From an uncultured Candidatus Saccharibacteria bacterium (lineage in GTDB: Bacteria > Patescibacteriota > Minisyncoccia > Phycocordibacterales > DSPV01), in the NCBI GenBank assembly GCA_964617735.1, contig CAZTXT010000001.1, positions 267,589-331,588 on the forward strand: 64,000 nucleotides of DNA, in the 5' to 3' direction. The position numbers and the translations under genes are program-made. Positions 5,884-60,895 of the stretch are shown here, piece after piece; within the stretch, counting starts at the first letter, position 1; the number at the start of each line of letters is the position of its first letter. The notes below the pieces were generated by a model. The model was given only the letters and a program-made list of their open reading frames with translations. It was not told the origin of the DNA and did not search any database.

Positions 5884-6804
5884 TCATGCTACGAGGAGTT
5901 TGTTGAGATTGCGCGAGCGTTCGAAAAAATAGAGGACGGTGAGGAAGGTGACCGCCGGCGATGCCCACGAGGGAATAGGGAAATGGAACGCGTCGAGCGT
6001 CATGATGATGCCAAGGAAGAGGATCGAGTACATGGCGCCGTTTTTGAGAAAGAGGTAGCGCTTGAGCCAGTGCATGTTGCGTACGGTCAATTGTCGTACG
6101 AGATATGCTCCGAGCCCGTTCCCGATGATGATGAGCGGCACGGAGAGCGTGAACGCGAACGCGCCGAGCACGCTGTCGATCGAGAAGGTCGCGTCGATCA
6201 CTTCGAGATAGAGGATTTTACTGACATCAGAGCGTCCTGATGCAGTCAAATTCGTTTCAGCTCGCTGCGCTTGTTCTTTGAACCCGTGCGTTATGAAAAA
6301 ACCAGTAGAACCGACGACTGCCCCGAACGCGACGAGCGGATCCTCATGGATCGCGAACCACGTTATGACCGTGAGAATGACAGCCGCGACAGCATAGAAC
6401 CAGAGTCCTTGCCTGATGAAGAACGGTTCATGCGGCAGCCCGATATTTTTCTTTTCGAGGAAGAGCCAGTGAAAGAAGAGAAGGATGAGGAATACGCCGC
6501 CGCCCAAGAGCAGTATCGGCGCTGACGCTTCGACGGACGCTGACACTGCGGGATTTTGCGAGAACATCGCGGTAAAGGAGCCGATGGCGCCAAGTTTCGG
6601 ATTAGCCATCCACATGATCGCCCACGGCAGGGCGCCGCGGATGATGAAAACTGCGAAGAGCACGCCCCAGAAGAGGAACCATCGTCGCGCTTTGGGGTGC
6701 ATCGTCGCAAGCACCTCGCCGTTGATGATGGCGTTGTCAATACTGCTGATGGTCTCGAAGAGCGCAAGACCGGCGATCGTTAGTACAAGCGTTGCAATGG
6801 GCAT
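5884..6804 (-). CDS. Integral membrane protein, TerC/DUF475-like
   Basis: About 8 predicted TM helices. The N-terminal ETISSIDNAIING block resembles the conserved E..S.DN motif of TerC/DUF475 proteins. Family assignment is tentative. Confidence 0.5.
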   Translation of the reverse strand: MPIATLVLTIAGLALFETISSIDNAIINGEVLATMHPKARRWFLFWGVLFAVFIIRGALPWAIMWMANPKLGAIGSFTAMFSQNPAVSASVEASAPILLLGGGVFLILLFFHWLFLEKKNIGLPHEPFFIRQGLWFYAVAAVILTVITWFAIHEDPLVAFGAVVGSTGFFITHGFKEQAQRAETNLTASGRSDVSKILYLEVIDATFSIDSVLGAFAFTLSVPLIIIGNGLGAYLVRQLTVRNMHWLKRYLFLKNGAMYSILFLGIIMTLDAFHFPIPSWASPAVTFLTVLYFFERSRNLNKLLVA

Positions 6805-6930
6805 GCTCTAGTATACTATTTTCTCGATTAAAGCCTACGGCGAGTTGTTCGCACTCGGTGTGGCAAAGCTCTTGTCATGTTTGAAAAAGCCCCGATGATA
6901 TACTATTATTCGATGGCGTTGTGCAGACAT

Positions 6931-7270: not shown

Positions 7271-8134
7271 TTGTATATGATTGACCCTACTTTGGAAAAC
7301 TATCTGATACAGGCAAAACAACGAGGTTTGTCTGACGATCTGATTCGCCAGGAACTCCAAAAGGCGGGGTGGTCAGTTGACCAAATAAACCAAGCCCTTT
7401 CTCCTAATGGTAGTGAGTTTAAGCCACCTTCTCCGCCTCCGCAACACATTCCAAGCGCAGCATACCCGAGTAATATGCCAATGATGAATAACAAAGGATT
7501 GCTACTAAGCTTTGCCGTGCTACTTGTTGCGCTTGCGTCCGCCGCCGCGTCTGCGTATTTCTTTTTTGGTAAAGGGAATAGTTTGTCACTTCAAAATACC
7601 GTCGATCAGAAAAGCACTACGGAGCAAAATAATCTCGAGCTCCCCTCTACTAGCCAACCTACTTCCTTTAGTGCTCCTTCTACTGCTACCTGCAAAGATG
7701 ACGATATTGACTGTCTTATTAATCTTATTAATATTCTTATAGATAAGTCTGTGACATGTACTCCGATTCGACAAATATACAAAGTATTTGGAATATCTAC
7801 TCGATACGAGATCCTCGGTTTTTCCGGAACGCAGTGCCAATTTCAGGACGAGGTTTTGGGGGGGACTTTTCACCTCGATCAAGCGTATAGGGATAGGGCG
7901 AAAAGCAGTGGCGCAAGCGATGCAGACATCCAGGCTTTTACTCAGGGTATGCAGGAGGGTTTCGATATGAGTGTTGGAAAAGTGTTGAAGTGTAATTCCC
8001 CCACATCAAAACTGACGTCTTATTTGAAGGAGGTGAAACAAGGGACGAAGAATTTCCACGAGAAGGGTGAAGTCTCTTTCAGTACCGACTCTGTGTCATT
8101 TGCTTTTACTCAAGATTACTGTAACTTTCAATAA
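7271..8134 (+). CDS. Membrane-anchored protein with an N-terminal cytoplasmic helical GW motif and a Cys-containing extracytoplasmic domain
   Basis: N-terminal LENYLIQAKQRGLSDDLIRQELQKAGWSVDQINQAL, then a Pro-rich linker, one TM helix (LLLSFAVLLVALASAAASAYFFF) and a Cys-containing ectodomain. AT-rich, immediately downstream of the tRNA-Thr pair. Confidence 0.6.
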   Translation: MYMIDPTLENYLIQAKQRGLSDDLIRQELQKAGWSVDQINQALSPNGSEFKPPSPPPQHIPSAAYPSNMPMMNNKGLLLSFAVLLVALASAAASAYFFFGKGNSLSLQNTVDQKSTTEQNNLELPSTSQPTSFSAPSTATCKDDDIDCLINLINILIDKSVTCTPIRQIYKVFGISTRYEILGFSGTQCQFQDEVLGGTFHLDQAYRDRAKSSGASDADIQAFTQGMQEGFDMSVGKVLKCNSPTSKLTSYLKEVKQGTKNFHEKGEVSFSTDSVSFAFTQDYCNFQ

Positions 8135-8137
8135 AAT

Positions 8138-9445
8138 ATGCCAAATCAATTTAGAGATGTAACGTCTACTGGCTATGGCGGTCGGATCATCAACTCGATA
8201 AAAGGAGTACTCATTGGACTTATTCTTTTTGTTGCTTCGTTCGGTTTACTCTATTGGAACGAAGGACGAGTTGATTTATCCAACATCGCGAAAACTGCTA
8301 CCGACATAAGTTCCGCAACAGTTAGCGCCGACTCTACACTGAGCGGCAAACTTATTTCTACAACGGGAAATGTAAACTCCGATCAAGTCATCGGAGATAA
8401 TTTGTTTTTGAATCCCGATAAGTTTATTGCCGCGGAGCGCGAAGTTGAGATGTATTCTTGGGTAGAAAAATCCGAATCTCATAGCAGAACTAACACTGGA
8501 GGTTCAGAGACAACCGAGACCACATACTCGTACTCAAAAGGATGGGAAGCAAATCCAAAATCTTCAAGCAACTTTGAACATCCTGAAGGACACGAAAATC
8601 CGCAGAAAGGCTTGGACAGCTATACTAACAAAGTTACTGCCGCAACAATTGGTGTTTACAATTTTGACCCGCAAAGTGTTGCCCTGCCAGACTTTTCTAA
8701 ACTTCCACTCAATTCTCAAAATGTGACTTTGAGTGATGGAGCAGTTTTAGCAAACGACAGTTACATTTTTATCAAAAAGAGTGCTGACGGAACATTCGAT
8801 AGCCCGCAAATCGGAGACTTGCGGGTAAGCTATCATGTTTTGAGCCCCGGATTTGAGGGTACAATTTTTGGAAAATTGAGCGGAAGTAGAATCGATCCGT
8901 ATTTTGACCAAAACGGAAATAATCTCTACCGTTTGTTCATTGGTACTCGCGAACAGGGAATCTCGACGCTCCACACTGAATATGCGACACTGCTTTGGAT
9001 TTTACGCCTGGTGGGCTTTTTGCTGATGTGGTTTGGGCTTTCCGCACTCTTTGGCCCGATTAGCGTTCTTCTCGACTTCCTCCCGATTTTCGGCGCGATA
9101 AGTCGCTTGCTAATTGGCGTAATAACGTTTCTTGTCGCACTTGTGCTCACGGTCGTGACAATCATTGTCTCGATGATTGCTCACAGCTTTATCACGCTCA
9201 TTATTGCCTTAGTAATTACTGTCGGAGCGATTATCGCTTTCTTTGTGATATGGAAAAACAAAAGAAAAGCCAGCGGTGTATTAGCACCAGCAATGGCTCC
9301 GGCACAAGCCACTCCGCCAGTAAATCAGCAGTTGGAAAGTTATGTGAGGGAAGCACGAAGTAGGGGTATGTCAAATGACCAAATTCGCCAAGAGCTTATG
9401 ACTTCTGGTTGGGCAAACGAAGAAATCAATCGAGTTTTGATGTAA
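8138..9445 (+). CDS. Multi-pass membrane protein (possibly TMEM43/DUF1625-like) ending in the same helical GW motif
   Basis: N-terminal TM helix, a ~250-aa hydrophilic domain, four C-terminal TM helices, then the C-terminal LESYVREARSRGMSNDQIRQELMTSGWANEEINRVLM. The TMEM43-like call rests on topology only. Confidence 0.5.
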   Translation: MPNQFRDVTSTGYGGRIINSIKGVLIGLILFVASFGLLYWNEGRVDLSNIAKTATDISSATVSADSTLSGKLISTTGNVNSDQVIGDNLFLNPDKFIAAEREVEMYSWVEKSESHSRTNTGGSETTETTYSYSKGWEANPKSSSNFEHPEGHENPQKGLDSYTNKVTAATIGVYNFDPQSVALPDFSKLPLNSQNVTLSDGAVLANDSYIFIKKSADGTFDSPQIGDLRVSYHVLSPGFEGTIFGKLSGSRIDPYFDQNGNNLYRLFIGTREQGISTLHTEYATLLWILRLVGFLLMWFGLSALFGPISVLLDFLPIFGAISRLLIGVITFLVALVLTVVTIIVSMIAHSFITLIIALVITVGAIIAFFVIWKNKRKASGVLAPAMAPAQATPPVNQQLESYVREARSRGMSNDQIRQELMTSGWANEEINRVLM

Positions 9446-43116: not shown

Positions 43117-45053
<1,937 letters not shown>

Positions 45054-45243: not shown

Positions 45244-46173
45244 TTAATTTGCTAATGCTTCGCTACCGCCGGTGATCTCCGCAAGTTCTTTGGTGATAGC
45301 TGCTTGGCGAGACTTGTTGTAACGGATGTTCAGGGTGTCTACCAGTTCGCCGGCGCTGTCCGATGCATTCTTCATGGCTATCATGCGCGACGAGTGCTCG
45401 GAGGCGTTTGCTTCTAGTATTGCATGGTAGACTTGCACGCCGAGGAATTTCGGCAAGAGTTTCCCGAGGACTTCGGCAGGGGACGGCTCGAACTTGAGGA
45501 CACCGGATTGAGCACCGGCAAGTTCCATCGAGCGAGGGATATTCGCATAACGGCCTTCAAGCGGGATGATGGAATCAATGATGCTTTCAACGGATTCTTT
45601 TGAGAAGGGAAGGAGCGTGCGCTCGATGACTTCTTGTTTAAGCGCCGAAAGGAAATTCGTGTAGAGGATTTTTACTTCGTCACACTTTTTCTCCAAGAAG
45701 AGGGACATGAGAAACTCGGTAATCTCTTCTGTTTCGTCTATCACCCCAAAATCTCCAGCTCCGAGGAAATCTTTAAGAATTGGCACGTGACGACGAGCGA
45801 AATAGTCGCGACCTTTTTTACCGATGGCAACGATGGAAACATTTGCGTCTGATTTTGAGACGATCTGTTCTGCTTTTCGTAGGACGTTCGCGTTGAAAGC
45901 GCCTGCGAGTCCTTTATCAGAAGTGATGACGACCAAGCAGAGATTCTTCACCGCGCGTTTTTCTGTGAGAGGCGAGTGCAATTCACTAGAGCTATTTGTT
46001 TTCTCAATCGCATGCAAAATAGAGAGTGCCGTCAGTGCGTAGGGGCGAGTTGCAAGCGCGATACCCTGACTGCGGCGCATTTTGACAGCCGAAACCGCCT
46101 CCATCGCCCGCGTTATCTGGCGAATGTTCTTTGTCGCGCGTATTCGGTTTTTTAATGCTCGTGAGCCGGCCAT
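45244..46173 (-). CDS. atpG: F0F1 ATP synthase gamma subunit
   Basis: N-terminal IRATKNIRQITRAMEAVSAVKMRRSQ and C-terminal ITKELAEITGGSEAL signatures. 309 aa. Confidence 0.9.
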   Translation of the reverse strand: MAGSRALKNRIRATKNIRQITRAMEAVSAVKMRRSQGIALATRPYALTALSILHAIEKTNSSSELHSPLTEKRAVKNLCLVVITSDKGLAGAFNANVLRKAEQIVSKSDANVSIVAIGKKGRDYFARRHVPILKDFLGAGDFGVIDETEEITEFLMSLFLEKKCDEVKILYTNFLSALKQEVIERTLLPFSKESVESIIDSIIPLEGRYANIPRSMELAGAQSGVLKFEPSPAEVLGKLLPKFLGVQVYHAILEANASEHSSRMIAMKNASDSAGELVDTLNIRYNKSRQAAITKELAEITGGSEALAN

Positions 46174-46417: not shown

Positions 46418-47944
46418 TTAGGATTTCTTGAAATAATGTTCTGTGAAATCTTTCGCGGCGGCGGTAAGTCCGTCTTCTACTTCTTTTGAGAGCTCTTTGC
46501 CGTCGCGCAACTTCTTCATCGTTGCTTCGTGGCGCTCATGGAGGAATTGCAGGAATTCTTTTTCAAATCGGCGTACGTCCGCGACCTCTACGCCATCCAG
46601 GAATCCACGGACGGCGCTGAAGATTGACACTGTCATCTCCTCAAAGGGCATATTGTGGTACTGATCTTGCTTGAGTAGTTCGGAGAGACGCCGCCCGCGG
46701 TCCAGTTTCTGCTTTGTAGACGGATCCAAGTCTTGGCCGAACTGGGCGAATGCGGCAAGCTCGCGGAATTGTGCAAGCTCAAGGCGCATCGTACCCGCGA
46801 CTTTCTTCATCGCCTTCGTCTGCGCCGCAGAGCCCACGCGCGAGACCGAGAGGCCGACGTTGAGGGCTGGCCGGACACCTTGGTAGAAGAGCTCTGGTTC
46901 AAGATAGATTTGTCCGTCGGTGATGGAGATGACGTTCGTCGGAATGTAGGCCGAGACGTCGGAGAGTTGGGTCTCGATGATAGGAAGCGCCGTGAGCGAC
47001 CCGCCGCCGTAATCTTTTGAGAGTTTTGCTGCGCGCTCAAGTAGGCGAGAGTGGAGGTAGAAAATATCGCCCGGATACGCTTCGCGGCCCGGTGGGCGCC
47101 GCAGAAGCAGAGAGATTTCGCGATAGGCGACTGCGTGCTTTGAGAGATCGTCGTAGACAATGAGTGCATCTTTACCCTGGTCCATAAAATATTCGCCGAT
47201 GGCGACGCCAGTAAAAGGGGCGATGTATTGAAGCGGTGCGGCCGCGGAAGCAGGTGCGGTAACGACGATGGTATAGCTCATCGCGCCGGATTTCTTTAAC
47301 TGCTCTACTATCTGCGCGACTTTGGACTCCTTCTGGCCGATAGCGACATAGATGCAGATGACCGACTTTTCTTTCTTCTGGTTGATGATGGTGTCTATCG
47401 CGATCGCCGTCTTTCCGGTCTGACGGTCGCCGATGATGAGCTCGCGCTGGCCGCGGCCGATGGGGATCATCGCGTCTATAGCTTTGATACCGGTGTGGAG
47501 CGGTGTGTTGACCGACTCGCGCGTAATGACGCCTGGAGCGATCTTTTCAAGCGGATAGCGCTTCATGCTCTCGGTCTTGAACGCGGGTCCGCCGTCTACC
47601 GGATTGCCGAGGGCATCCACGACACGGCCGACGACCGCGTCCGAGACAGCGACCGAGAGGACGTTGCCAGTGCCTTTGACCGTCTGGCCCTCCTGCACCG
47701 ACTTTGATTCGCCGAGAATGACCGCTTTGAGCGAGCCTTCTTCGAGGTTCAGTGCCATACCAAGAACCGTTTCTGATCCCGTTTCAAATTCAACGAGTTC
47801 GGAGTACATCACTTTTGAAAGTCCGCGGATTTCCGCGACGCCGTCGCCGACGCGCGTTACCGTGCCGACGTGTTCCATCTTTGCGCCCGTGGAAAGTCCG
47901 GAGATCTCTTCTTTCAGCTGCTCTAAAATACTATCTTTTGTCAT
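46418..47944 (-). CDS. atpA: F0F1 ATP synthase alpha subunit
   Basis: P-loop [15 protein letters not shown]. 508 aa. Confidence 0.95.
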
Positions 47945-47954
47945 TGTCGTTTAT

Positions 47955-48338
47955 TTAAACTTTCTGCACTGTTCTCTTAAGATCCTGCATGCGCCGCGCG
48001 ACGGTGTTGTCTATCCGCATGTCGCCGATCGTGATGCGCGTACCGGCGCCTAGTTTGGGATCAATCTTCTCGGTTATTTCGATATCAGTCCCGACGAGTT
48101 TTTTGAGCTCCGCTTTTGAGACGGCGCCGACTTTTTCCGTTTCTACGACTACCGGCGTAACGCCTTTTTGTGTGTACCACTCGCGCTCAAATTCTGCGAG
48201 AATCCCACGCAGGAGATTTGTCCGCCCGTGCCGTGCGAGCGTTGCGGCGAATTCTTTGACGACTTTGCTTGCATGGTGAGGATGTTCCTCAATCAAGTCG
48301 TAGAGCACTTTCGCGTATTGTTTGGCATTATAACGCAT
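47955..48338 (-). CDS. atpH: F0F1 ATP synthase delta (OSCP) subunit, short form
   Basis: C-terminal LGAGTRITIGDMRIDNTVARRMQDL matches the OSCP iGG.v.igd..iD.S motif. Position between atpF and atpA. 127 aa. Confidence 0.75.
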   Translation of the reverse strand: MRYNAKQYAKVLYDLIEEHPHHASKVVKEFAATLARHGRTNLLRGILAEFEREWYTQKGVTPVVVETEKVGAVSKAELKKLVGTDIEITEKIDPKLGAGTRITIGDMRIDNTVARRMQDLKRTVQKV

Positions 48339-48342
48339 GAGA

Positions 48343-48855
48343 TTAATGAGCGAGTTTATGCTGCGCGGTCTTGAGCGCCTGCTCTACCAGTTTCTCCCGA
48401 CTTTTTGCATCCAAAATATCCCCAACGCTTTTCTCAACTGCCATCGCGACAGTCTCGCCTAAGCTTCGTGTCGCCTCTTGCATGAGCTTGTCCTTCTCCT
48501 GCGTCATCTTTGTGCGCTCTTCTTTAGATACCCGAGCCATTTCAGACTTTGTATCTGCGATGATGCGCTCTGCCGCCTTCGCAGCATCCGCTTCGGCTTG
48601 TTTTATCAACGTCTCCGACTGGCGGCGAGCTTCAGCGAGCCGCTTCTCTTTCTCCGTATCCGCATCAGCGAGTTTCGCGGCAGTCGCTTTCGCATCCTCG
48701 TGTGCTTTCGCGATCTCTTTCTGTCGTTTGTCCAGAAGGGAGATGATGGGCTTGTAGAGGAATCTCTGCAAAATGAAAAGGAGGATGGCGAAGTTGATGA
48801 TCTGCGCCAAAAGAATCTTCCAGTTTATCCCTAGGTTGGACAACAGCTCGCTCAT
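48343..48855 (-). CDS. atpF: F0F1 ATP synthase subunit b
   Basis: N-terminal TM (ILLAQIINFAILLFIL) followed by a long charged coiled coil. Sits between atpE and atpH. Confidence 0.8.
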   Translation of the reverse strand: MSELLSNLGINWKILLAQIINFAILLFILQRFLYKPIISLLDKRQKEIAKAHEDAKATAAKLADADTEKEKRLAEARRQSETLIKQAEADAAKAAERIIADTKSEMARVSKEERTKMTQEKDKLMQEATRSLGETVAMAVEKSVGDILDAKSREKLVEQALKTAQHKLAH

Positions 48856-48865
48856 CTACTGGCGG

Positions 48866-49105
<240 letters not shown>

Positions 49106-49189
49106 TTATTAATTGCTAAAAGATAAAAAAGAGGGGCAACCGCCTCGTTTGTTCATAATATTACTATACACAGGCGTTTTTTCAAATGA

Positions 49190-50965
49190 ATGCTAAACTC
49201 TAAATATACAATGTCAGCATCATCGGAGCTTACTCAATATATAAAGCAGGCTCGTCAGAGTGGCCTTTCGGATGACCAAATTCTTCAGGAACTAGTTCAA
49301 TCTGGCTGGAATCCTACTGATATTAATTCAGCGCTTTCTCTAACGCCGATTTCCCCAATACCCACAGATATTCAATCCTCCGCAGAGATACAGAAACAGA
49401 CCTCGCCTCCTAAAGGTCGACTTTTCTTGACCCCGCTTATATTCTTTATTGTAGTGCTTGGTATAAACGTGTTGATTGGATATCAGCAAGCCGTGCTAAG
49501 TTCTAAAACTTTCATGGTTGGTATGATTGCCACTGTGTTCATCTCGACTGCAGTTTTTAGCCTTCTTACCATTCTAATCAGAAAAATTGGTAATAGATTC
49601 GGCCTAAGGTGGAAAGTTGCGTCTTGGATTCTCGTTTCTTTTTTACCCATTGGGTTTTTAGGGTTTATTTTTTGGGAACAAAATCAAGTTTCACCAAGTG
49701 TGAAGGCTTTTCAGGAAAAGAGTTTTTACAAAACCATTCCAGGTGAATGGAAAACTTACATTAACGAGCCATTTAGCCTTTCGCTTAGATATCCTTCAAC
49801 GATGAAGCTTGATGAGGTTCCTCATTCGTATGGTTTCGATGATGTGTTTACGGTTAACCTCGAGTCTACGATTTCAAGTACAACGGGTGTTGCAGTGACG
49901 GTCAACGCAACAACGGATAAAAGTAAATGTGATGACCTTTGGGCAAATACTTCCCTAATACCTAAAAACTTGTTTACGTATAAGAAAGTCATAAACGGTA
50001 GGGAATTTTTAGTTGGTAGCGCCTCTACATGGACAGCATACGGAAGTGCTATGGAAGTTTTCGGCTATTTTCAACAACTTCCCATTTGCAAGGTTGTAAC
50101 AGCAGCTTTTGTTGTGCCGCTTGATCTAAGTTCATCTACGGTGAAAATCTCAAAACAAGACAATATTTTTTCGGCACGGCAGAAGATCGGCAGTGCAGCC
50201 CAGGACGTTTTGTTCAAAATTGATTACGCGCCCATGCTAGAAACAGCGGAGTCAATCATTGGTTCGATGAGCGACAAAATAATCGATGATGGTTCGGCCA
50301 ATGTTACACATGTGCATGAAAGCGATTCGGCGCTCTATAGTGAAATGACTCGAATTAGCAGTTCTAGACTTGTGGCTTTTCGCATCTACAATTCTAAGTC
50401 CGCCCATTCATATGTAGGGACATGCGAAGATGCTGTTTTCAAGAGTCTGGACCCTGACATGACCTGTCGGGAAAGTCCCAACGAGTTTATTATGTATTAC
50501 AAGATAAATGACAAGTTTGGCTATGCGTGCGGTGATACGAACTGGTATGGGTCAGTCGAAGCTGAACCGACTGGATTTTCTTGCAATGGAGCCCAAACTT
50601 CTTCCGTCTCAAAAGGAGTTTCTGTTGACGGAAAATACAACCACATTAAAACTTCCGAGCCGCAATCCTTTCTGGATTGTGGAATATTAAGTTATAAAGA
50701 TAACACTGAACAACAAGGGGGAATCGGCAACTCTGATTGCTTTAATAAGGCGATCACTTCATGCAAATCTGCTGTAATCTCGGGTGTTGTAGACGGTTTT
50801 GTATCTACATATCGAGTATTTGGAAATCAACAAGGACAATGCAAGCTAACCCAACAATTCTTTAAACAAGTTTCTTCTAATGAGACGCAAAGCGGGCTTG
50901 TTACATGCGATATTAATCCATCGATTGGTTGGTCAAGTATATCCAACTGCATTCAGTCATATTAG
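49190..50965 (+). CDS. Large membrane protein with the N-terminal cytoplasmic helical GW motif and a Cys-rich extracytoplasmic domain; opposite-strand gene inside the atp locus
   Basis: N-terminal ELTQYIKQARQSGLSDDQILQELVQSGWNPTDINSAL (same motif as 7271 and 8138), a Pro-rich linker, three TM helices, then a ~420-aa domain with more than 14 Cys. An alternative start lies at 49211. AT-rich. Confidence 0.6.
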   Translation: MLNSKYTMSASSELTQYIKQARQSGLSDDQILQELVQSGWNPTDINSALSLTPISPIPTDIQSSAEIQKQTSPPKGRLFLTPLIFFIVVLGINVLIGYQQAVLSSKTFMVGMIATVFISTAVFSLLTILIRKIGNRFGLRWKVASWILVSFLPIGFLGFIFWEQNQVSPSVKAFQEKSFYKTIPGEWKTYINEPFSLSLRYPSTMKLDEVPHSYGFDDVFTVNLESTISSTTGVAVTVNATTDKSKCDDLWANTSLIPKNLFTYKKVINGREFLVGSASTWTAYGSAMEVFGYFQQLPICKVVTAAFVVPLDLSSSTVKISKQDNIFSARQKIGSAAQDVLFKIDYAPMLETAESIIGSMSDKIIDDGSANVTHVHESDSALYSEMTRISSSRLVAFRIYNSKSAHSYVGTCEDAVFKSLDPDMTCRESPNEFIMYYKINDKFGYACGDTNWYGSVEAEPTGFSCNGAQTSSVSKGVSVDGKYNHIKTSEPQSFLDCGILSYKDNTEQQGGIGNSDCFNKAITSCKSAVISGVVDGFVSTYRVFGNQQGQCKLTQQFFKQVSSNETQSGLVTCDINPSIGWSSISNCIQSY

Positions 50966-50974
50966 GCACTTTAT

Positions 50975-51075
50975 ATTTTAATGGCGCTTCAGCGCGTGTA
51001 AAACTTGAGAACGCGACCATCGCGAGTGTCGCGAAAATGAGCGCTTGGTTGAAAACAATCGGAATGTTTGCATAA
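50975..51075 (-). pseudogene. Orphan duplicate of the atpB 3' end (encodes QALIFATLAMVAFSSFTRAE)
   Basis: A 36-nt core (51006-51041) is identical to 52265-52300. Flanking codons differ from atpB only synonymously across 20 residues. Nothing atpB-like lies upstream of the fragment. Confidence 0.7.
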
Positions 51076-51169
51076 TTCACTATAATGTGACATTGTTGCA
51101 TCAGAAACTGTGCCGTGAGCACGGTGGCGGTTCGTTGAAAACACAATCAAGTCAGAAACGGAGGTCTAT

Positions 51170-51856
51170 ATGACTAACGAGAGGGAAGAGAAAGTCAGCG
51201 AGTCGCTGCTCGTTTTCATTGATTTTCTTCATGCGGTTGTATTCGGTCTCATTGTGTCCGAAGCAGTTGAGAAGACACTTCTGGAGGGTTCAATACCCAC
51301 AGGAGAGAAGATCGGCAGACTAGTCATGCTCCTCGCGGCCTTTTATTTTCTCACATGGGATTGGATTCACGGACGGTTACTCACCCTGCGTAATCCCTAC
51401 ACCCGCTACTTGAGATTTTTTCTCGAGATTCTTATTGCGGCGTGTGGCTACGGCGTAGCATTAACGGCTCTTGCTAGAAGTATGAATATGCTTCTGTTCA
51501 TCGCAGCGATCCTTTTACTTGGTGCAGGATGGGCCAAGATAACCATGCTGGAGCATCCGCAAAGTGCGGATATGGGGGAGTTGAGAACCGTACTATGGGG
51601 ACAATTGCTTGTGATCTTGTTGACTCTTGGATTCTATGCTTATAACCTTCGTTTTCACCACGGTAGCACGGGCATTCCACAAGGATTAATTATCCTTGTA
51701 GGAGGTTGGTTTATGGTTTTGTTCTACGAGCTTGCGGTCGAGCGGCGGGAACAAGGGATCCTTGGTGGTCCTAGTGTACCATTTCTACCAAATCCATTGA
51801 TTGATAGTTGGCGAAAGAACATCCGCGTTTGGTACGCGAAACAGAAAGGAAGATGA
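51170..51856 (+). CDS. Hypothetical polytopic membrane protein (cassette gene 1)
   Basis: 228 aa with about 6 TM helices. Lies between the atpB 3'-end duplicate and atpB. Confidence 0.5.
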   Translation: MTNEREEKVSESLLVFIDFLHAVVFGLIVSEAVEKTLLEGSIPTGEKIGRLVMLLAAFYFLTWDWIHGRLLTLRNPYTRYLRFFLEILIAACGYGVALTALARSMNMLLFIAAILLLGAGWAKITMLEHPQSADMGELRTVLWGQLLVILLTLGFYAYNLRFHHGSTGIPQGLIILVGGWFMVLFYELAVERREQGILGGPSVPFLPNPLIDSWRKNIRVWYAKQKGR

Positions 51857-51859
51857 AAG

Positions 51860-52159
51860 ATGAAAGTTGCACAAAAAAAGTCCGAGCGCGAGAAAGAAGC
51901 GCTCCGATGGTTCCTCTTCATAGCATGGATAAACTGCGTAATACCTCTTCTGGTTTTACTGGTGGGGTTAATCGTCGCGAAATTCGTTGAGGGAACAACC
52001 TGGACATCGGTTATTGTAACAATGATCGGATTTGTTTTACTCATTGTAGGGATCTTCGGTGGTTTAGGTCTATGGTTCTATCATTCAGGGGAATCATTTC
52101 CTTCGTGGGTATACGAGGGTAAGGCAGGACCAAGAGACTATAGTTCTTCAAAAAAATGA
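51860..52159 (+). CDS. Hypothetical small membrane protein (cassette gene 2)
   Basis: 99 aa with 3 TM helices. Starts 4 nt after the upstream stop. Confidence 0.45.
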   Translation: MKVAQKKSEREKEALRWFLFIAWINCVIPLLVLLVGLIVAKFVEGTTWTSVIVTMIGFVLLIVGIFGGLGLWFYHSGESFPSWVYEGKAGPRDYSSSKK

Positions 52160-52196
52160 GGTAGAGATTTTGAACATCATTTTCTTTACCTTACAC

Positions 52197-52226
52197 GGGC
52201 TGGCACTCCGCCAGCCCTTTTTCTTT
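52197..52226 (+). terminator. Rho-independent terminator for the plus-strand cassette
   Basis: GGGCTGGC-ACTCC-GCCAGCCC followed by TTTTTCTTT. Lies 11 nt from the atpB stop on the other strand. Confidence 0.75.
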
Positions 52227-52237
52227 GCCTGGATTTT

Positions 52238-52969
52238 TTAGTGCCCCTCGGCGCGGGTGAAGGATGAGAACGCGACCATCGCGAGTGTCGCGAAAATGAG
52301 GGCTTGGATAAAGCCCACAAAAAGTTCAAGGCCGAGGAAGGGAACCGGGGCGACGTAGGGGACGAGCATACCCATAATGATCAAGAGGACTTCACCGGCG
52401 AAGATGTTGCCGAACAATCGGAACGAGAGCGAGATGATTTTTGAGAGTTCGCTGATGATTTCAAGGATTCCCGTGAATGCGGCTATAGGACCCTTAAAGG
52501 TGATGAATTTGCCGAGATGGTGTTTAGCGCCGACGGTCATGAGGCCGTAGATATGCGAAAGGACGACCGTGATGAGCGCGAGCGCGAGCGTCATGTTCAC
52601 ATCAGAGTGCACCGAGCGGAAGAGAGGGACGAATTCACCATTGATCGTAGTGCCGATAGAGCCGATGCCCGGAAGCGTGCCGAGCCAGTTTGAGCAGAGG
52701 ACGAAAAGGAAAATAGTCGCGACGATAGGGAAGAAGCGCTCGGCTGTTTTGCGATCGCCCGCGATGGTTTCTACGAATTTCAGGAATTGCTCGATGATGA
52801 CTTCGACGAAGTTTTGGAGTTTGCCGGGTACATGCTTGAGCCCATTCGAGACGACGAGCGAGAGAACGATGAGGAAAATAGCAACGAGCCAGCCTGTCAG
52901 CATCGTGTTAGTAACCGGCAGGGGCCCGATATGAAAAAGCGTCTCCGCGACTATTGAGATGTGTTCCAT
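52238..52969 (-). CDS. atpB: F0F1 ATP synthase subunit a
   Basis: Conserved LSFRLFGNIFAGEVLL helix with the essential Arg. 5-6 TM helices. 243 aa. Confidence 0.9.
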   Translation of the reverse strand: MEHISIVAETLFHIGPLPVTNTMLTGWLVAIFLIVLSLVVSNGLKHVPGKLQNFVEVIIEQFLKFVETIAGDRKTAERFFPIVATIFLFVLCSNWLGTLPGIGSIGTTINGEFVPLFRSVHSDVNMTLALALITVVLSHIYGLMTVGAKHHLGKFITFKGPIAAFTGILEIISELSKIISLSFRLFGNIFAGEVLLIIMGMLVPYVAPVPFLGLELFVGFIQALIFATLAMVAFSSFTRAEGH

Positions 52970-53343
52970 AGCCGCAATTTTACACTATTTGAGCCCTTTC
53001 GCCAGATTCGTTTGACATCCGTTTATTTGAAGCATAGACTTTTTGTAGATCATGGTTTGAATATCTATCGCTTAAGTCCTGCGAAAGCGGGGTTGGGCTA
53101 AAGCGAGTCCTTAAGGGCAAGATGGTTCTTGCATACCGTAAACTCGGGACGTGAGAATCCGGTATCCTCCGTAATCATAGGAAAACCGATGTCGCTTGAA
53201 TGAGCGGAGTCGGCAAGGCCCTCTTCTTATTAAGAGGGTAAATCAAGGTGGCACCGCGGTGAAATCCCGCCCTTGTTGCACAGAGATATCTGCGCGCTGA
53301 GGGCAGGATTTTATTTTGGTCCCAGTTCTTTAGAGAGGTCAAT

Positions 53344-53640
53344 ATGAGTAAATCAAATCCAGTATGCAGTGGAAAAACGGAAGGGTACTTTTGTTCTTGG
53401 AGAGAGCTTAAGATGAACTATGACAGTACGATCGGGCAAACTGACCGCGTCGAGGTGTATGTCTGTCCGTGGTGCGGCTACACGAGCTTCTTGGTGACAT
53501 TCACATTCAAACCTATGCCGCATCGACAGGCCGATAGTGTGCCGAAGGGGAAATATTTCTGCGAGCATTGCGGATGGGGAACCGACTGCCCAGAGTGTCC
53601 TAGTTGCAGGAGGGATTTACGGAAGGCGAGAGGATGGTGA
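53344..53640 (+). CDS. Small Cys-rich (multi-CxxC) zinc-ribbon protein
   Basis: 98 aa with CSGKTEGYFC, CPWC, CEHC, CPEC and C..C. AGAGAGG lies 6 nt upstream of the ATG. Its own terminator follows at 53655-53688 (GCGCCG-loop-CGGCGC then TTTTATTT). Confidence 0.5.
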   Translation: MSKSNPVCSGKTEGYFCSWRELKMNYDSTIGQTDRVEVYVCPWCGYTSFLVTFTFKPMPHRQADSVPKGKYFCEHCGWGTDCPECPSCRRDLRKARGW

Positions 53641-53681
53641 CCCTCTGACATGTTTTGCGCCGTGCTTATGCGCGGCGCATT

Positions 53682-53924
53682 TTATTTGAGTATTTTTGAA
53701 ATCTTGCGATAGACAATCGTAGTAGAGGTAAATGCAGCAAGGACAACGCCTGCGACTAGAAGCCATGGTGTCGTGCCGAAGTATTTATCAGCATATCTGC
53801 CGGCCAGCGCAAAAATTACGAGCGGAATCGCGATTTGAAACCCAAGCTCCCACGCCAACGCCCACACGCTAAGAATTTTCTGCTTAGTGGCAGGTAATTC
53901 TTGATCCATTTCTTTTGAATCCAT
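53682..53924 (-). CDS. atpZ: AtpZ/AtpI-like small membrane protein (putative F0F1-ATPase gene-1 family)
   Basis: LGFQIAIPLVIFALAGRYADKYFGTTPWLLVAGVVLAAF fits the AtpZ two-helix consensus LG.e....vl.G...G..lD.k..TsP.f.l.gl.lG. Same strand as atpB and upstream of it. Confidence 0.55.
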   Translation of the reverse strand: MDSKEMDQELPATKQKILSVWALAWELGFQIAIPLVIFALAGRYADKYFGTTPWLLVAGVVLAAFTSTTIVYRKISKILK

Positions 53925-57029: not shown

Positions 57030-58277
57030 TTGCCCGATTGGAAATTTGGAGGAATGAATTCCACCGAACTCAAGAAGACCCTCGACTTTATTGAGGATAA
57101 AATTGCTTATCCTGATATCTTTACTATTGAAGGAGCTTCGACAAATCCGGAAATTACTATTGATGGCAGGAAAGTTCTGATTTTTTGTTCAAATAATTAT
57201 CTTAGCGTTGCTACAGATCCTCGAATTAAGGAGGAAATGAAAAGAGCTGTGGAAAAGTATGGTATGGGTTCGGGGGGATCCCGACTTGTCTCTGGCAATA
57301 TCTACATACAAGGGGAGTTAGAGAGGAAGATAGCAGAATTTAAGGGTACAGAAGATGCTATAACCTTTTCGACTGGCTATATGGCTAATGAGGGAACAAT
57401 CCCCGCTCTTTTGCAACCTCCGGGCACATCTCTTTTTAATTATTTCAAAAATAAGACGTTCCTACGTGACTCCGCTTTAGTTCTCAGTGATGAGCTTAAC
57501 CATGCGAGCATCGTCGACGGTACCAGGCTTTCCAGGGCTGACAAGATTATTTACAAGCATCGAGATATGGCTGATTTAGAGAAAGCTTTACGTCGCTCTG
57601 GAAAATATAAAAGAAAATTGATTGTTACAGACGGGGTGTTTAGCATGGACGGAGACATAGCTCCACTTGATGAAATTATGAGCATATCTAAGAGATATGC
57701 TGCTATTGTTATGGTTGATGATGCTCACGCGACCGGAGTACTAGGCGATAGTGGTAAGGGGACCGCAGAGTATTTTAAGTTAAAGGACCATCCAGAAGTC
57801 ACCATGGGTACGTTCACGAAAGTTTTTGGAGGGGTCGGCGGTTTTGTTGCGGGCTCAAAAGATCTTATTAAATACCTTCGGGTAACAGCGCGCCCATATA
57901 TATTTTCAGCTCCTATTCCCCCTGTTATAGCCTGTGGTTTGCTCAGGGCAATAGATATTGTTTCTAGCGAGCCCCAAAGGAGAATACGATTATGGTCTAA
58001 CATCAATTATTTAAAGAATAGACTTGATGAGCATGGCTTTAACACCCTGAGAAGCGAGACGCAAATCATACCTATATTTATAGGAGAAGAAAAAAAGGCA
58101 ATTCTCGTTTCCCGCAGGCTCCTTGAGCTAGGCTATTTTCTACCCTGCATTCGTTGGCCAGCCGTAGAGCGTGGGAAAAGTAGACTACGTTTAACATTGA
58201 TGGCTGATCACACGAAAGAGCACATTGATGGATTGTTAAGGGCGCTTATTTCAGTAAAAGATCAAGTTCGCTTTTAA
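57030..58277 (+). CDS. PLP-dependent alpha-oxoamine synthase family acyltransferase (BioF/Kbl/SPT-like)
   Basis: Class-II aminotransferase fold. The DDAHATGVLGDSGKG and GTFTKVFGGVGGFVAG blocks (PLP-lysine region) are typical of 8-amino-7-oxononanoate synthase and serine palmitoyltransferase. AT-rich. Confidence 0.75.
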   Translation: MPDWKFGGMNSTELKKTLDFIEDKIAYPDIFTIEGASTNPEITIDGRKVLIFCSNNYLSVATDPRIKEEMKRAVEKYGMGSGGSRLVSGNIYIQGELERKIAEFKGTEDAITFSTGYMANEGTIPALLQPPGTSLFNYFKNKTFLRDSALVLSDELNHASIVDGTRLSRADKIIYKHRDMADLEKALRRSGKYKRKLIVTDGVFSMDGDIAPLDEIMSISKRYAAIVMVDDAHATGVLGDSGKGTAEYFKLKDHPEVTMGTFTKVFGGVGGFVAGSKDLIKYLRVTARPYIFSAPIPPVIACGLLRAIDIVSSEPQRRIRLWSNINYLKNRLDEHGFNTLRSETQIIPIFIGEEKKAILVSRRLLELGYFLPCIRWPAVERGKSRLRLTLMADHTKEHIDGLLRALISVKDQVRF

Positions 58278-58282
58278 ATTAG

Positions 58283-59308
58283 ATGACGAATAGGCAATTA
58301 TTTGAGAAGTACCAAAATATCAAGAAAGATACAGGATTAAGTTTTTACGACACACACATTCATCCGCATGATGTTTTTGGACTAGCAAAAGCAGAAAAGG
58401 TTTCTTTTGGAGAAAAAATCAAGGTCTCGGGTCCCACTCTGCTAGAGAAACTCAAGTATAGTAATTCCGCACTTTCTTTGTTGGGTTTCTTATTCCGTAA
58501 TACTCCTGGCTATATAACTAGAGAGATAAAAAAGAGTTTTCCGGTAATTAGCGAGCAGAAACTTCTGGAAGTGTTGAGCGCTTCACTCATTGATTCTGCA
58601 GTTCTTGTGCCAATATATCCTAAAGTATCGCCATATGAACTCTATAAATCTTTTTCCTCCTCAAAATTTATTAGGCTAGGTTCAGCAGATTTCAGCCTGA
58701 ATGAAATTGACTTAGAAAAAGATCTTGGCCAGCAGCTAAACATGCATTCAATTAAAGGGATAAAATTACATCCCAATATACAGTCATTTTATCCAGAGCC
58801 GTCTCGCAATAACATAACCGTCGAATCAAAACTAAAAGTTGTTTATCAATTTGCAAACAAAAATAATTTATATTTATTATTTCACGGAGGAATCTCATAT
58901 GTTCCGACAGGTTTTTCATACGAGAGGAGGGAATATGCCCTTCTGAACCGCTTCTTTTCTGGGAGGAAAAGTTTCCTTGCGGATATAAATGTTCCGGTTG
59001 TGATCGCACATTTAGGTATTTATAATATTAAAGAGCCTGATTTTAAGATAATAAGACGTATCTCTGAGTTTGAAAACGTGCATTTTGATACTGCCGCTGT
59101 AAATCCAAAATATATTTTGAACTATCTTAACTATTTCACTCCGAAAAAGTTAGTATTTGGCTCTGATACCCTATATTTCAATCTGAAGTATAATTTAGAG
59201 ATGTTCCTTCGAACTCTTTATGCACACTCTGATTCTAAATTTGAAGAGAATGTTCTGAGTGTTTTTCATAGCAACTTTGTTAATAACGTTCTTAGGATTC
59301 GATCTTGA
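58283..59308 (+). CDS. Amidohydrolase-2 family TIM-barrel metal-dependent hydrolase
   Basis: FYDTHIHPH (HxH), LHPNIQSF, LFHGG, VIAHLG and FGSDTLYF (metal-ligand pattern H.H...H...H...D). Begins 6 nt after the previous gene. AT-rich. Confidence 0.6.
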   Translation: MTNRQLFEKYQNIKKDTGLSFYDTHIHPHDVFGLAKAEKVSFGEKIKVSGPTLLEKLKYSNSALSLLGFLFRNTPGYITREIKKSFPVISEQKLLEVLSASLIDSAVLVPIYPKVSPYELYKSFSSSKFIRLGSADFSLNEIDLEKDLGQQLNMHSIKGIKLHPNIQSFYPEPSRNNITVESKLKVVYQFANKNNLYLLFHGGISYVPTGFSYERREYALLNRFFSGRKSFLADINVPVVIAHLGIYNIKEPDFKIIRRISEFENVHFDTAAVNPKYILNYLNYFTPKKLVFGSDTLYFNLKYNLEMFLRTLYAHSDSKFEENVLSVFHSNFVNNVLRIRS

Positions 59309-59320
59309 ATTAAAAAAGAA

Positions 59321-60895
59321 ATGCAGTACATCATTCTTTTCTTTAGCATTGTAAATCTTTTGCTTGGTGTGATTATCTTGATACACAGCAAACACGAGAA
59401 GGAAAATGTGACATTCCTTACATTCGCATTTTTTGCAAGCTTATGGACATTCAACAATTTTTATTTAAGAGTGAATCCGGAAGTAACGATTCTGCGAGGA
59501 TCGTATGCTTTAGGCTTGATTGTCGCAACATTTGGACTCATCTGGAGCTATTTTTTTCTTAAGAAAAACCTGCCAGTACTGGTAAAATTTGTCATATTAC
59601 CTCTATCGATTTTCTTCTTTTTCGTTACTCTCTTCTCAGATTCTGTCGTTAGGAGTCTTGCTTCAATAAAGCAGTTAGGGTACGAGGGTGAATTGGGGCA
59701 ATGGTTCAATATTTATTCTGCATACTTTACTGTTGTAATCGTTTTAATAATTTATGAGTTTTTCCTAAGGTTACGGCAAGAAAAAGATGAATCAAAGAAA
59801 GTTCAGATTAGATATGTTTTAGCAGGAGCGTTCTTTTTTGCTCTTATTTCGTCTATTGTAAGTTTCCTAATCCCGACTTTTTTTCACACGCTACGTTTCA
59901 CTATCTTGGACAATTTCAGTTTCTCTATTTTTCTTTTTGCTATAGTTTATGCGATATTGAAGCAGCACCTTTTCAATATAAAGATTATTGTTACCGAGAT
60001 ATTTGTCTTCTCGCTATGGGCTTTTATTTTAATTAGAAGTATTTTATCTGAAAACCTCCAAGACGTTTTTGTTAACGGTACCCTATTGGTTTTGACTGTT
60101 ATTGTAGGGACTTTCTTAATCAGAAGCGTTATCAAGGAAGTTCAGCAGCGCGAGAAGATTCAAGAGTTGGCCAAAGATTTGGAGGAGACTAATGATCGGC
60201 AGGAGAAGCTCATTCATTTCATCGGACATGAGGTGAAGGGATATCTGACGAAGGGAGAGTACGCATTTTCGGAGATGATCGAGGGTGATTTCGGCGACCT
60301 CTTACCCCAAACGAAGGTGCTCGCGACGACTGCGCTTAAAGAATTACGCAAGGGCGTCGCGTCGGTTACGGACATACTCAAGGCCGCGAATCTCAAGCGT
60401 GGTACGGTAACCTACGATAAGAAACCCACCGATCTTAAAGATCTCCTCAAGGATGCGGTCATCAAACTCCAGCCTGCGGCACAGGAAAAAGGACTTTCCT
60501 TTGAGACTACTATGCAGGAATCAGAGCAATTCATGGCCAATATCGATGCCGGACAGTTCGGCGAGCATGTCATCCGTAATCTGATCGACAATTCCATACG
60601 GTACACTCCCCATGGTTCGGTAACCGTTGGTCTCGCTCATAAAGATGGCAGGATTGTTTTTTACGTTAAAGATACCGGTGTGGGCATTTCGGATGAGGAC
60701 AAGGCTCATCTCTTTACCGAGGGCGGACGGGGCAAGGATTCCCTAAAGGTGAATGTGCATTCGACGGGGTATGGACTCTACATCGCCAAAAATATCGTTG
60801 AGGCCCATGATGGGAAGATCTGGGCCGAGTCGGCCGGTCCCGGGAAGGGCTCGACCTTTACGGTAGAGTTGCCGGAAGTCGCAGCATCTCAATAA
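59321..60895 (+). CDS. Sensor histidine kinase with a 7-TM sensor region (orphan, no adjacent response regulator)
   Basis: Seven N-terminal TM helices and a coiled-coil linker. H-box FIGHEVKGYLT. HATPase_c G1/G2 boxes GTGLGLYIAKNIVEAHDGKIWAES..GKGSTF. Confidence 0.85.
   Translation: MQYIILFFSIVNLLLGVIILIHSKHEKENVTFLTFAFFASLWTFNNFYLRVNPEVTILRGSYALGLIVATFGLIWSYFFLKKNLPVLVKFVILPLSIFFFFVTLFSDSVVRSLASIKQLGYEGELGQWFNIYSAYFTVVIVLIIYEFFLRLRQEKDESKKVQIRYVLAGAFFFALISSIVSFLIPTFFHTLRFTILDNFSFSIFLFAIVYAILKQHLFNIKIIVTEIFVFSLWAFILIRSILSENLQDVFVNGTLLVLTVIVGTFLIRSVIKEVQQREKIQELAKDLEETNDRQEKLIHFIGHEVKGYLTKGEYAFSEMIEGDFGDLLPQTKVLATTALKELRKGVASVTDILKAANLKRGTVTYDKKPTDLKDLLKDAVIKLQPAAQEKGLSFETTMQESEQFMANIDAGQFGEHVIRNLIDNSIRYTPHGSVTVGLAHKDGRIVFYVKDTGVGISDEDKAHLFTEGGRGKDSLKVNVHSTGYGLYIAKNIVEAHDGKIWAESAGPGKGSTFTVELPEVAASQ

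Follow-up and report, generated by a model that had tools for sequence, protein, structure and literature searches.

A two-gene unit bracketed by a duplicated atpB 3' end in a Patescibacteria ATP synthase operon: a candidate case of insertion by short-homology recombination

The F-type ATP synthase operon of an uncultured Candidatus Saccharibacteria bacterium is split between atpB and atpE. We analysed a 64-kb stretch of the ~675-kb contig that carries it (hereafter the window, about 10% of the genome), in which the gap between these two genes measures 3147 nt and the genes within it are read on the opposite strand. Adjoining atpB is a 1259-bp unit, the cassette, which holds two membrane-protein genes (its cargo) between two direct copies of the atpB 3' end; we refer to the copy that forms the end of atpB itself as proximal and to the other as distal. 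Beyond the distal copy, a gene for a 591-aa protein is a second element splitting atpB from atpE, one that a preliminary description of this DNA overlooked. The features of the region, in the direction in which atpB is transcribed, are as follows.

52238..52969, minus strand: atpB (F0 subunit a), intact, 243 aa; Pfam PF00119, E = 8e-46, profile positions 1-214 of 217
52235..52312, minus strand: proximal repeat copy, made up of a 12-nt upstream part, the core, the tail and ~3-5 nt beyond the stop
52265..52300, minus strand: core of the proximal copy, CTCATTTTCGCGACACTCGCGATGGTCGCGTTCTCA, encoding LIFATLAMVAFS; putative crossover region
52238-52264, minus strand: proximal tail, the last 9 atpB codons plus stop; C-terminus ...SSFTRAEGH, relative-like
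52197..52227, plus strand: intrinsic terminator, GGGCTGGCACTCCGCCAGCCC (stem 52197-52217) then TTTTTCTTTG (T run)
51860..52159, plus strand: cargo gene 2, encoding a small membrane protein of 99 aa, conserved partner of cargo gene 1
51170..51856, plus strand: cargo gene 1, encoding a helical membrane protein of 228 aa from an unannotated family
51049..51076, plus strand: promoter-like site (TTGAAA, 16-nt spacer, CATAAT), a consensus match only
50976..51053, minus strand: distal repeat copy, a displaced atpB 3' fragment (pseudogene), with its core at 51006-51041
49190..50965, plus strand: gene for a 591-aa membrane-anchored protein, convergent with atpB and outside the 1259-bp unit
48866..49090, minus strand: atpE (c subunit); Pfam PF00137

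The duplication of the atpB 3' end is real. A repeat finder returned one family, a direct repeat of 78 nt (50976-51053 and 52235-52312) with 82% identity and a spacing of 1259; the spacing agrees with the preliminary description, which had put the length at 65-100 nt. Its identical 36-nt core was also reproduced (51006-51041 = 52265-52300) and occurs exactly twice in the window with three or fewer mismatches allowed, but in 0 of 100 shuffles. The two cassette flanks align with a Smith-Waterman score of 89, against 17 ± 1.9 for shuffled sequences, and together these comparisons rule out chance similarity of the two copies. A repeat search of the window found no further gene-tail duplications.

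Over the 20 codons between a Gln and a Glu, both copies translate to QALIFATLAMVAFSSFTRAE, and the six codons that differ (8 nt in all: GCC/GCG, TCC/AGT, TTC/TTT, ACC/ACA, GCC/GCT and GAG/GAA) all do so synonymously, in agreement with the codon differences listed previously. The serine pair AGT/TCC is a three-base switch. Random hits in six codons would give an all-synonymous outcome with a probability of 1.6e-4, and when 8 substitutions were placed at random, the peptide was kept in 0 of 400,000 simulations. The claim of purely synonymous divergence holds within these 20 codons and fails on either side of them. Upstream of the core, 12 nt are still homologous and include one nonsynonymous change (Ile to Asn), beyond which homology ends. 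At the other end, the last three codons read GH* versus APL without gaps, owing to a 1-nt indel near the distal stop: deleting one inserted base in GAAGCGCCATTAA gives back EGH* (...RAEGH*), so the distal copy is frameshifted. The inserted base lies within 50978-50990; the corrected stop is at 50978-50980, and 12 nt separate it from that of the 591-aa gene. By our own reading, deleting the neighbouring C instead yields ...RAEAH*, a frequent ending among relatives.

Altogether the distal copy has at most one nonsynonymous change and one indel, while nearly every synonymous site has changed. A duplicate made in place would have been a pseudogene throughout and would have gathered mostly nonsynonymous changes; decay after a local or target-site duplication is therefore ruled out by the synonymous-only divergence, including the AGT/TCC switch. 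This pattern instead argues that the two tails diverged almost wholly inside functional atpB genes and were joined recently. The earlier judgement that this is not a random duplication is upheld.

Divergence is distributed unevenly along the repeat. Codons differ at 0/12 positions in the core versus 10/12 in the flanks (Fisher p = 7e-5), where the flank count takes in the indel-corrected tail and the four codons preceding the core, tallied by hand from the codon table. A perfect block between diverged flanks is the trace expected of a reciprocal crossover dependent on a run of identical sequence, and the sharp block appears to mark the site of recombination. We also observed, at 51012-51034 and 52271-52293 within the identity block, three TCGCG(A/T) palindromes spaced 9 nt apart, which arise from codon triplets of the form xTC-GCG-Axx; the window has 48 TCGCGA sites, versus ~16 expected from base composition.

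The preliminary description had proposed comparison with related genomes to find an unoccupied site, and such sites turned out to be the rule. Among 80 species-representative genomes with an atpB homolog, 76 had both atpB and atpE placeable, and atpE directly followed atpB in 76/76 (median gap ~150 nt, maximum 428 nt). No second atpB tail and no cargo genes were present in these 76 relatives. None of the relatives with an empty site is of the same species: the closest atpB in 5.8 billion proteins (P0110, at the locus we designate L096) shares 79% amino acid identity, and the best genome representative by atpB, L006, shares 74%. The closest atpB proteins are named from Candidatus Paceibacterota, Taylorbacteria and related Patescibacteria groups. 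Scanning metagenomes with a degenerate form of the core added only two atpB genes, both more distant (L091 and L092), of which L092 has the normal atpB-atpE order. At L091 (atpB 67% identical), an unrelated reverse-strand open reading frame (ORF) of ~95 aa at 8090-8375 stands right after atpB, and the locus ends before atpE. We found no second copy of the cassette targeting atpB in the 80 genomes, in metagenome and viral pattern scans, or at nine other loci that carry the cargo. Exact-protein look-ups for a donor or an empty-site strain returned the same genome only, in two sequencing runs (SRR12313479/80). The arrangement there is that of the window as far as their short contigs reach, and no excised or empty-site variant was seen in those contigs.

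One relative resembles this locus in another respect. In L006 a 60-aa opposite-strand ORF (MITPELIDYIRQRKQFGITKEG..., 6742-6924, minus strand) occupies the space between atpB and atpE, with a stop codon overlapping that of atpB. This ORF is homologous to the N-terminal domain of the 591-aa protein (E = 4e-8 and 1e-6 in two comparisons), and L006 alone among the 76 relatives has an opposite-strand ORF of this kind.

We then examined the cargo. The two opposite-strand genes, for proteins of 228 and 99 aa, their Shine-Dalgarno sequences and the terminator stem at 52197-52217 are as the preliminary description gave them. The -35 hexamer of the cassette promoter, TTGAAA, lies within the repeat and was created by two differences upstream of the core (GGATAAAG to GGTTGAAA). 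The 228-aa protein matches no Pfam, NCBIfam or PADLOC family. One search, of 5.8e9 proteins, gave 8 homologs, and a second, of 1.84e9 proteins, gave 103 cluster representatives. The closest cargo homologs lie in the sequencing runs of the L096-like organism (SRR22388311 with its sister runs SRR22387936 and SRR22388212). Its AlphaFold2 model (mean predicted local distance difference test score, pLDDT, 79) has seven helices, and the predicted fold found no match among PDB structures. Pfam matches of the 99-aa protein are sub-threshold only, and it shares 33% identity (E = 4e-7) with the partner ORF at locus L003; at each of the other loci, the 228-aa homolog is accompanied by a small ORF downstream.

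Elsewhere the cargo pair occurs at nine loci representing eight distinct contexts in other Patescibacteria contigs, with its own promoter and 5' leader. These contexts include a position between holA and fpg and others beside a pyrH-like kinase, a methyltransferase and a nucleotidyltransferase; the pair lies next to atpB in 0/8 of them and is adjoined by an integrase in 0/8. No matches to the cargo were found in phage, plasmid or IMG/VR collections, and a phage or plasmid origin was dropped on that ground.

Diverged direct repeats with an identical core bracket the pair in 3/8 of the other contexts (L003, L087 and L088/89), while L002 and L086 have no flanking repeats around it. At L087, direct repeats of ~340 nt (1884-2222 and 3668-4036) are made up of a small gene's last ~25 codons together with the intergenic region that follows, and are 77-85% identical apart from a 37-nt perfect block, the same mosaic as at atpB. 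At L003 the pair is bracketed at a spacing of 1246 by a 20-42-nt repeat (AGCGTCGGCGGAAGTTTTA...) present in three copies (1520-1561, 2905-2946 and 4151-4192). The three copies bracket two successive units, a 415-aa gene and then the cargo-pair homolog (spacing 1385 and 1246), which looks like an array of repeat-separated accessory units. At L088/89 a 39-nt direct repeat (761-799 and 1824-1862) surrounds the pair at a spacing of 1063. Outside it, direct copies of ~183 nt (283-465 and 1949-2131 in L088, the same in L089) also flank the pair; this element has terminal inverted repeats (GCGAAAAGCC...GGCTTTTCG) and resembles a miniature inverted-repeat transposable element. No common motif was found at the repeats or borders among seven homologous loci.

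No integrase, resolvase, transposase or Xer domain was found in the cassette or in the ~48 window ORFs scanned, which encode ordinary housekeeping or envelope domains or have no domain match. The earlier statement that the cassette holds no integrase or recombinase is thus borne out; only the two membrane-protein genes are there, and promoter, two genes and terminator account fully for its 1259 bp, with no pseudogene remnants. Neither repeat copy contains a dif-like 11-6-11 site (ATAA-N6-TTAT), a weak test given that this consensus may not be that of the phylum. We discarded a module dependent on Xer (an integrative mobile element exploiting Xer, or pdif module) for want of such a site in the repeats, and an integron cassette because there is no attC-like border motif in seven loci and no IntI in the window, and because the repeat is atpB coding sequence. 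In the collections searched there was no related integrative and conjugative element (ICE) or integrative and mobilisable element (IME).

Several marks of an integrative element are nevertheless present: repeats bracket the cassette and one of them is the target 3' end, atpB is intact, the original end is displaced, and relatives have unoccupied sites. Absent are a recombinase beside an att site and recurrence at atpB in independent genomes. Of the preliminary proposal, an element that integrates into the 3' end and brings a replacement end, the structural part therefore stands (full-length atpB, displaced tail, empty sites) and the dedicated element is not supported (no recombinase, no recurrence); its alternative, recombination with a diverged donor, is in our view the likelier mechanism. 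The structure is the trace left when DNA recombines into an essential gene's end and brings a functional replacement for it.

We propose, with about an even chance of being right, that the 1259-bp unit was inserted at the 3' end of atpB by a Campbell-type "tail-swap", in which DNA from a related lineage recombined through short homology. As expected of such an event, the duplicated arm brackets the insert and the copies are joined within a stretch of identity. Also in favour are the lower GC of the insert compared with the atp genes, and the recurrence of the cargo pair as a conserved two-gene module that in three of its eight other contexts again lies between diverged repeats with an identical core. 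A single reciprocal crossover inside the 36-nt identity block would have joined resident atpB and the unit. The latter would have been either a circle or part of a donor that already had the duplication, which are topologically equivalent and give the same outcome, and we infer an intermediate of one or the other form. The unit would have consisted of its own promoter, the 228-aa and 99-aa genes, the terminator and a ~80-nt copy of the atpB end as its sole homing feature. Crossover would have joined the resident atpB body to the incoming tail (52238-52264), leaving the essential gene intact and its protein altered at most at the penultimate residue, and would have moved the resident tail to the far side (50976-51005), where it now lies, frameshifted, beside the 591-aa gene that converges on atpB.

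The atpB-like arm of the unit may derive from a functional atpB of a related Paceibacteria-type lineage, which would account for a tail that differs at synonymous sites only. The part of the arm left untranslated after integration carries the Ile-to-Asn change and may now supply the -35-like hexamer to the cargo promoter. The driver was probably general or short-homology recombination of the host acting on DNA taken up from a relative: with no recombinase gene in the unit, host recombination on imported DNA is the simplest driver, although the pathway is deduced from structure. The H47 island, which has imperfect flanking repeats and no recombinase, has been documented to excise and integrate independently of RecA (PMC5426353). 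Genes for com DNA uptake are conserved across the phyla of the candidate phyla radiation (CPR), and natural transformation with homologous recombination has been demonstrated in Saccharibacteria only (PMC10633639); comEC, dprA and recA were not among the window ORFs scanned.

This proposal depends on which tail belonged to the resident gene, and here the evidence is divided. We take the distal tail to be the resident one and the proximal tail to be incoming, an assignment that is provisional. The distal tail abuts the 591-aa gene, and the homologous ORF of L006 overlaps the atpB stop, which argues that the distal tail is original; its frameshift was counted as a sign of a displaced resident tail. 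By hand count, it agrees with the L006 tail at 24/30 nt, versus 19/30 nt for the proximal tail. L096, on the other hand, agrees with the proximal tail at 6/6 variable codons and with the distal tail at 0/6, so the codon matches of L006 and L096 point opposite ways on the ancestral tail. The proximal match fits an arm from a closely related lineage; L096 has the same composition as the host. G+C content at third codon positions (GC3) is 0.70 in host atpB, with 8/9 such positions G or C in the proximal tail and 2/9 in the distal tail. Ancestry has thus to be judged from a proximal tail near L096, a distal tail near L006, only four codons upstream of the core, and a GC3 of opposite polarity. The distal tail may itself be an earlier arrival, brought with a 591-like gene from a lower-GC relative, in which case the core could be a recurrent crossover point. 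The 591-aa gene is probably older at this site.

Several considerations weigh against the tail-swap. Codon composition points the other way, the proximal tail being host-like and the distal tail like the 591-aa gene, and the closest relative, L096, has the proximal-type tail. For RecA-type recombination, ~80 nt of homology with 36 nt of perfect identity is a short stretch. The non-replicating circular intermediate is hypothetical, the occurrence is a single one, the scans described above found no donor genome with the cassette beside atpB, and a recombinase encoded beyond the 64 kb could have acted in trans.

The main rival is unlikely in our estimation. It holds that the cassette is a non-autonomous or decayed site-specific element resembling a cis-mobilisable element (CIME), with the repeats as attL and attR of an element that targets the atpB 3' end, and with an integrase that either acts in trans from elsewhere or was removed by a clean deletion sparing just the cargo. 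CIMEs by definition keep attL and attR and lose the genes for integration and transfer (PMC5704250), and here attL/attR-like repeats are kept with no such genes between them. The signature also matches that of prophage e14 in icd (a replacement end, a displaced pseudo-tail and mostly synonymous differences); an identical core, a synonymous translated tail and a nonsynonymous untranslated arm would suit the long-term life of an element; the core is rich in short palindromes; and a tenth or so of the genome was inspected. Set against this, no integrase or excisionase turned up in the cassette or the ~48 window ORFs, no pseudogene remnant is present in the 1259 bp, and no other atpB-linked copy appeared in the 80 genomes, the metagenome and viral scans or the cargo loci. 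The cargo pair, moreover, had no matches in phage, plasmid or IMG/VR collections and an adjoining integrase in 0/8 other contexts.

The uncertain polarity of the tails bears on another explanation, which we hold to be a little less probable again: a two-step or one-sided foreign capture without crossover in the core. The proximal copy would then be native and the distal copy a passenger fragment of a foreign atpB that arrived along with the 591-aa gene of low GC, homology-facilitated illegitimate recombination anchored in atpE being one possible route, and the 36-nt identity would stem from later short-patch gene conversion or strong conservation. Such a history accommodates the host-like proximal tail (8/9 against a mean GC3 of 0.70) with its 6/6 match to L096, and a distal tail (2/9) in line with the adjacent 591-aa gene, whose GC3 is 0.38. 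The entire 3.1-kb atpB-atpE stretch is lower in GC than the atp genes, and the core peptide is widely conserved in the clade. Yet capture needs an extra gene conversion to produce 0/12 versus 10/12 differing codons, and even L096, the closest relative, differs at 4/12 core codons (hand count). It would also require the cassette to predate the event at the site, or several independent events, and L006 shows that a 591-like opposite-strand ORF abutting the atpB stop occurs within the clade. An assembly artefact, finally, in which an uninterrupted atpB and a separate 1259-bp circle or second strain were merged through the shared 36-mer, is very improbable. The k=31 Logan assembly of SRR12313480 does break exactly at the repeat, its contig L001 equals window 51012-52294 as a unitig between shared k-mers, and the k=31 graph is the same for the inserted form and for an empty site plus a circle. 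A 36-nt repeat, however, is far below the size of a sequencing read and the final k of standard assemblers, which makes such an artefact unlikely; the source sequence is a 674,686-bp contig, both runs have the same flanking sequence, and the atpB of an empty-site form would bear the frameshifted distal tail.

A broader version of the tail-swap seems to us improbable, ranking below both the CIME-like element and foreign capture. It would make the cassette one of a recombinase-free class of very small gene modules whose only mobility determinant is a copy of the last ~25 codons of a conserved essential gene, with the same encoded protein but diverged synonymous sites, spread among naturally competent Patescibacteria by short-homology Campbell integration that always restores the target. 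The cargo promoter would be recruited from the arm's untranslated part, and L003, L087 and L088/89 would be other targets.

If the tail-swap is true of atpB, a conserved essential operon in a reduced Patescibacteria genome has gained foreign genes without an element-encoded recombinase, and a ~80-nt mimic of a gene end with 36 nt of identity would suffice for insertion. This would offer a concrete route for accessory-gene flux in a phylum in which classical mobile elements are seldom recognised, and a design idea for genetic tools, namely short homing arms that repair the target gene. With a single locus it is for now a well-documented curiosity, not a new principle. The split of atpB from atpE also bears on ATP synthase expression in these organisms, as 3.1 kb of antisense genes between them leave the F0 genes no longer readable from one simple co-transcript.

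The rest of the operon lies on the minus strand around this region.

53924..53682, minus strand: atpI
49185..49158, minus strand: promoter-like site upstream of atpE, a consensus match from a promoter scan
48855..48343, minus strand: atpF
48338..47955, minus strand: atpH
47944..46418, minus strand: atpA
46173..45244, minus strand: atpG
44484..43117, minus strand: atpD

Two further places in it are broken. Between atpG and atpD, a 190-aa ORF (44481-45053, minus strand) overlaps the atpD start by 4 nt and has a C-terminal FtsK gamma domain, which binds FtsK orienting polar sequences (KOPS), an odd passenger for an ATP synthase operon. The atpI-atpB gap of 712 nt (52970-53681) contains an opposite-strand 98-aa ORF (53344-53640, plus strand) with several CxxC pairs, whose zinc-ribbon Pfam matches are all sub-threshold; the window repeat search found no repeats flanking it. 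Where atpI was detected in relatives, its match mostly ends less than ~300 nt from atpB, with a few larger distances (~740 nt in L019). These breaks fit the view that intergenic sites of the operon tolerate insertions in this lineage. Elsewhere in the window, 58001-60000 has 35% GC versus 44-57% in other parts; it takes in an amidohydrolase-like gene together with the first part of a gene for a histidine-kinase-type ATPase. At 108-2721, the gene for a 1322-aa surface protein with fn3 and InlB-type repeat domains contains 271-nt repeats of 75-97% identity, the product of recent domain duplication within the gene.

Among the closest known systems is the cryptic prophage e14 (and phage 21) in E. 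coli icd, which likewise supplies a replacement 3' end and displaces the original one (icdC). The same measurement applied to the 3' 165 nt of icd and icdC in E. coli K-12 gave 44 identical, 9 synonymous and 2 nonsynonymous codons (PMC13626634). However, e14 spans 15 kb and encodes intE and xisE, whereas the present unit measures 1.26 kb and has no recombinase; and in e14 homology runs from the crossover to the gene end at 92% identity, in contrast to a 36-nt perfect block with both flanks heavily diverged. CIMEs, which arise by decay of streptococcal ICEs and IMEs, share with the cassette two features: attL/attR-like direct repeats, of which one lies in a conserved gene's 3' end, and the lack of mobility genes (PMC5704250). 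They descend from an ICE or IME and are mobilised by the cognate integrase of a tandemly integrating element, neither of which was found here, and phylum and target are different. The H47 island of E. coli has imperfect direct repeats with shared homology blocks, no recombinase, and RecA-independent mobility provided by the host (PMC5426353); it is 13 kb long, its repeats are not a gene end and its mobility was shown experimentally, whereas mobility here is deduced from structure. Integron cassettes and Xer-dependent (dif/pdif) modules are, like this one, small promoter-plus-gene units without a recombinase between short sites, but the atpB repeats are coding sequence with no attC-like border motif or dif-like site, and the window has no IntI.

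Campbell-type integration by a single homologous crossover is used with suicide vectors and is known in naturally transformable bacteria. It leaves a duplicated arm around the insert, with resident and incoming sequence combined in each copy, which is the mosaic seen at atpB. Laboratory events of this type involve hundreds of base pairs of identical homology, as against an arm of ~80 nt with 36 nt of identity here, and the natural circle is hypothetical. The atpB case is distinct from the known kind in its very small size, its missing recombinase, its Patescibacteria host and its target, atpB.

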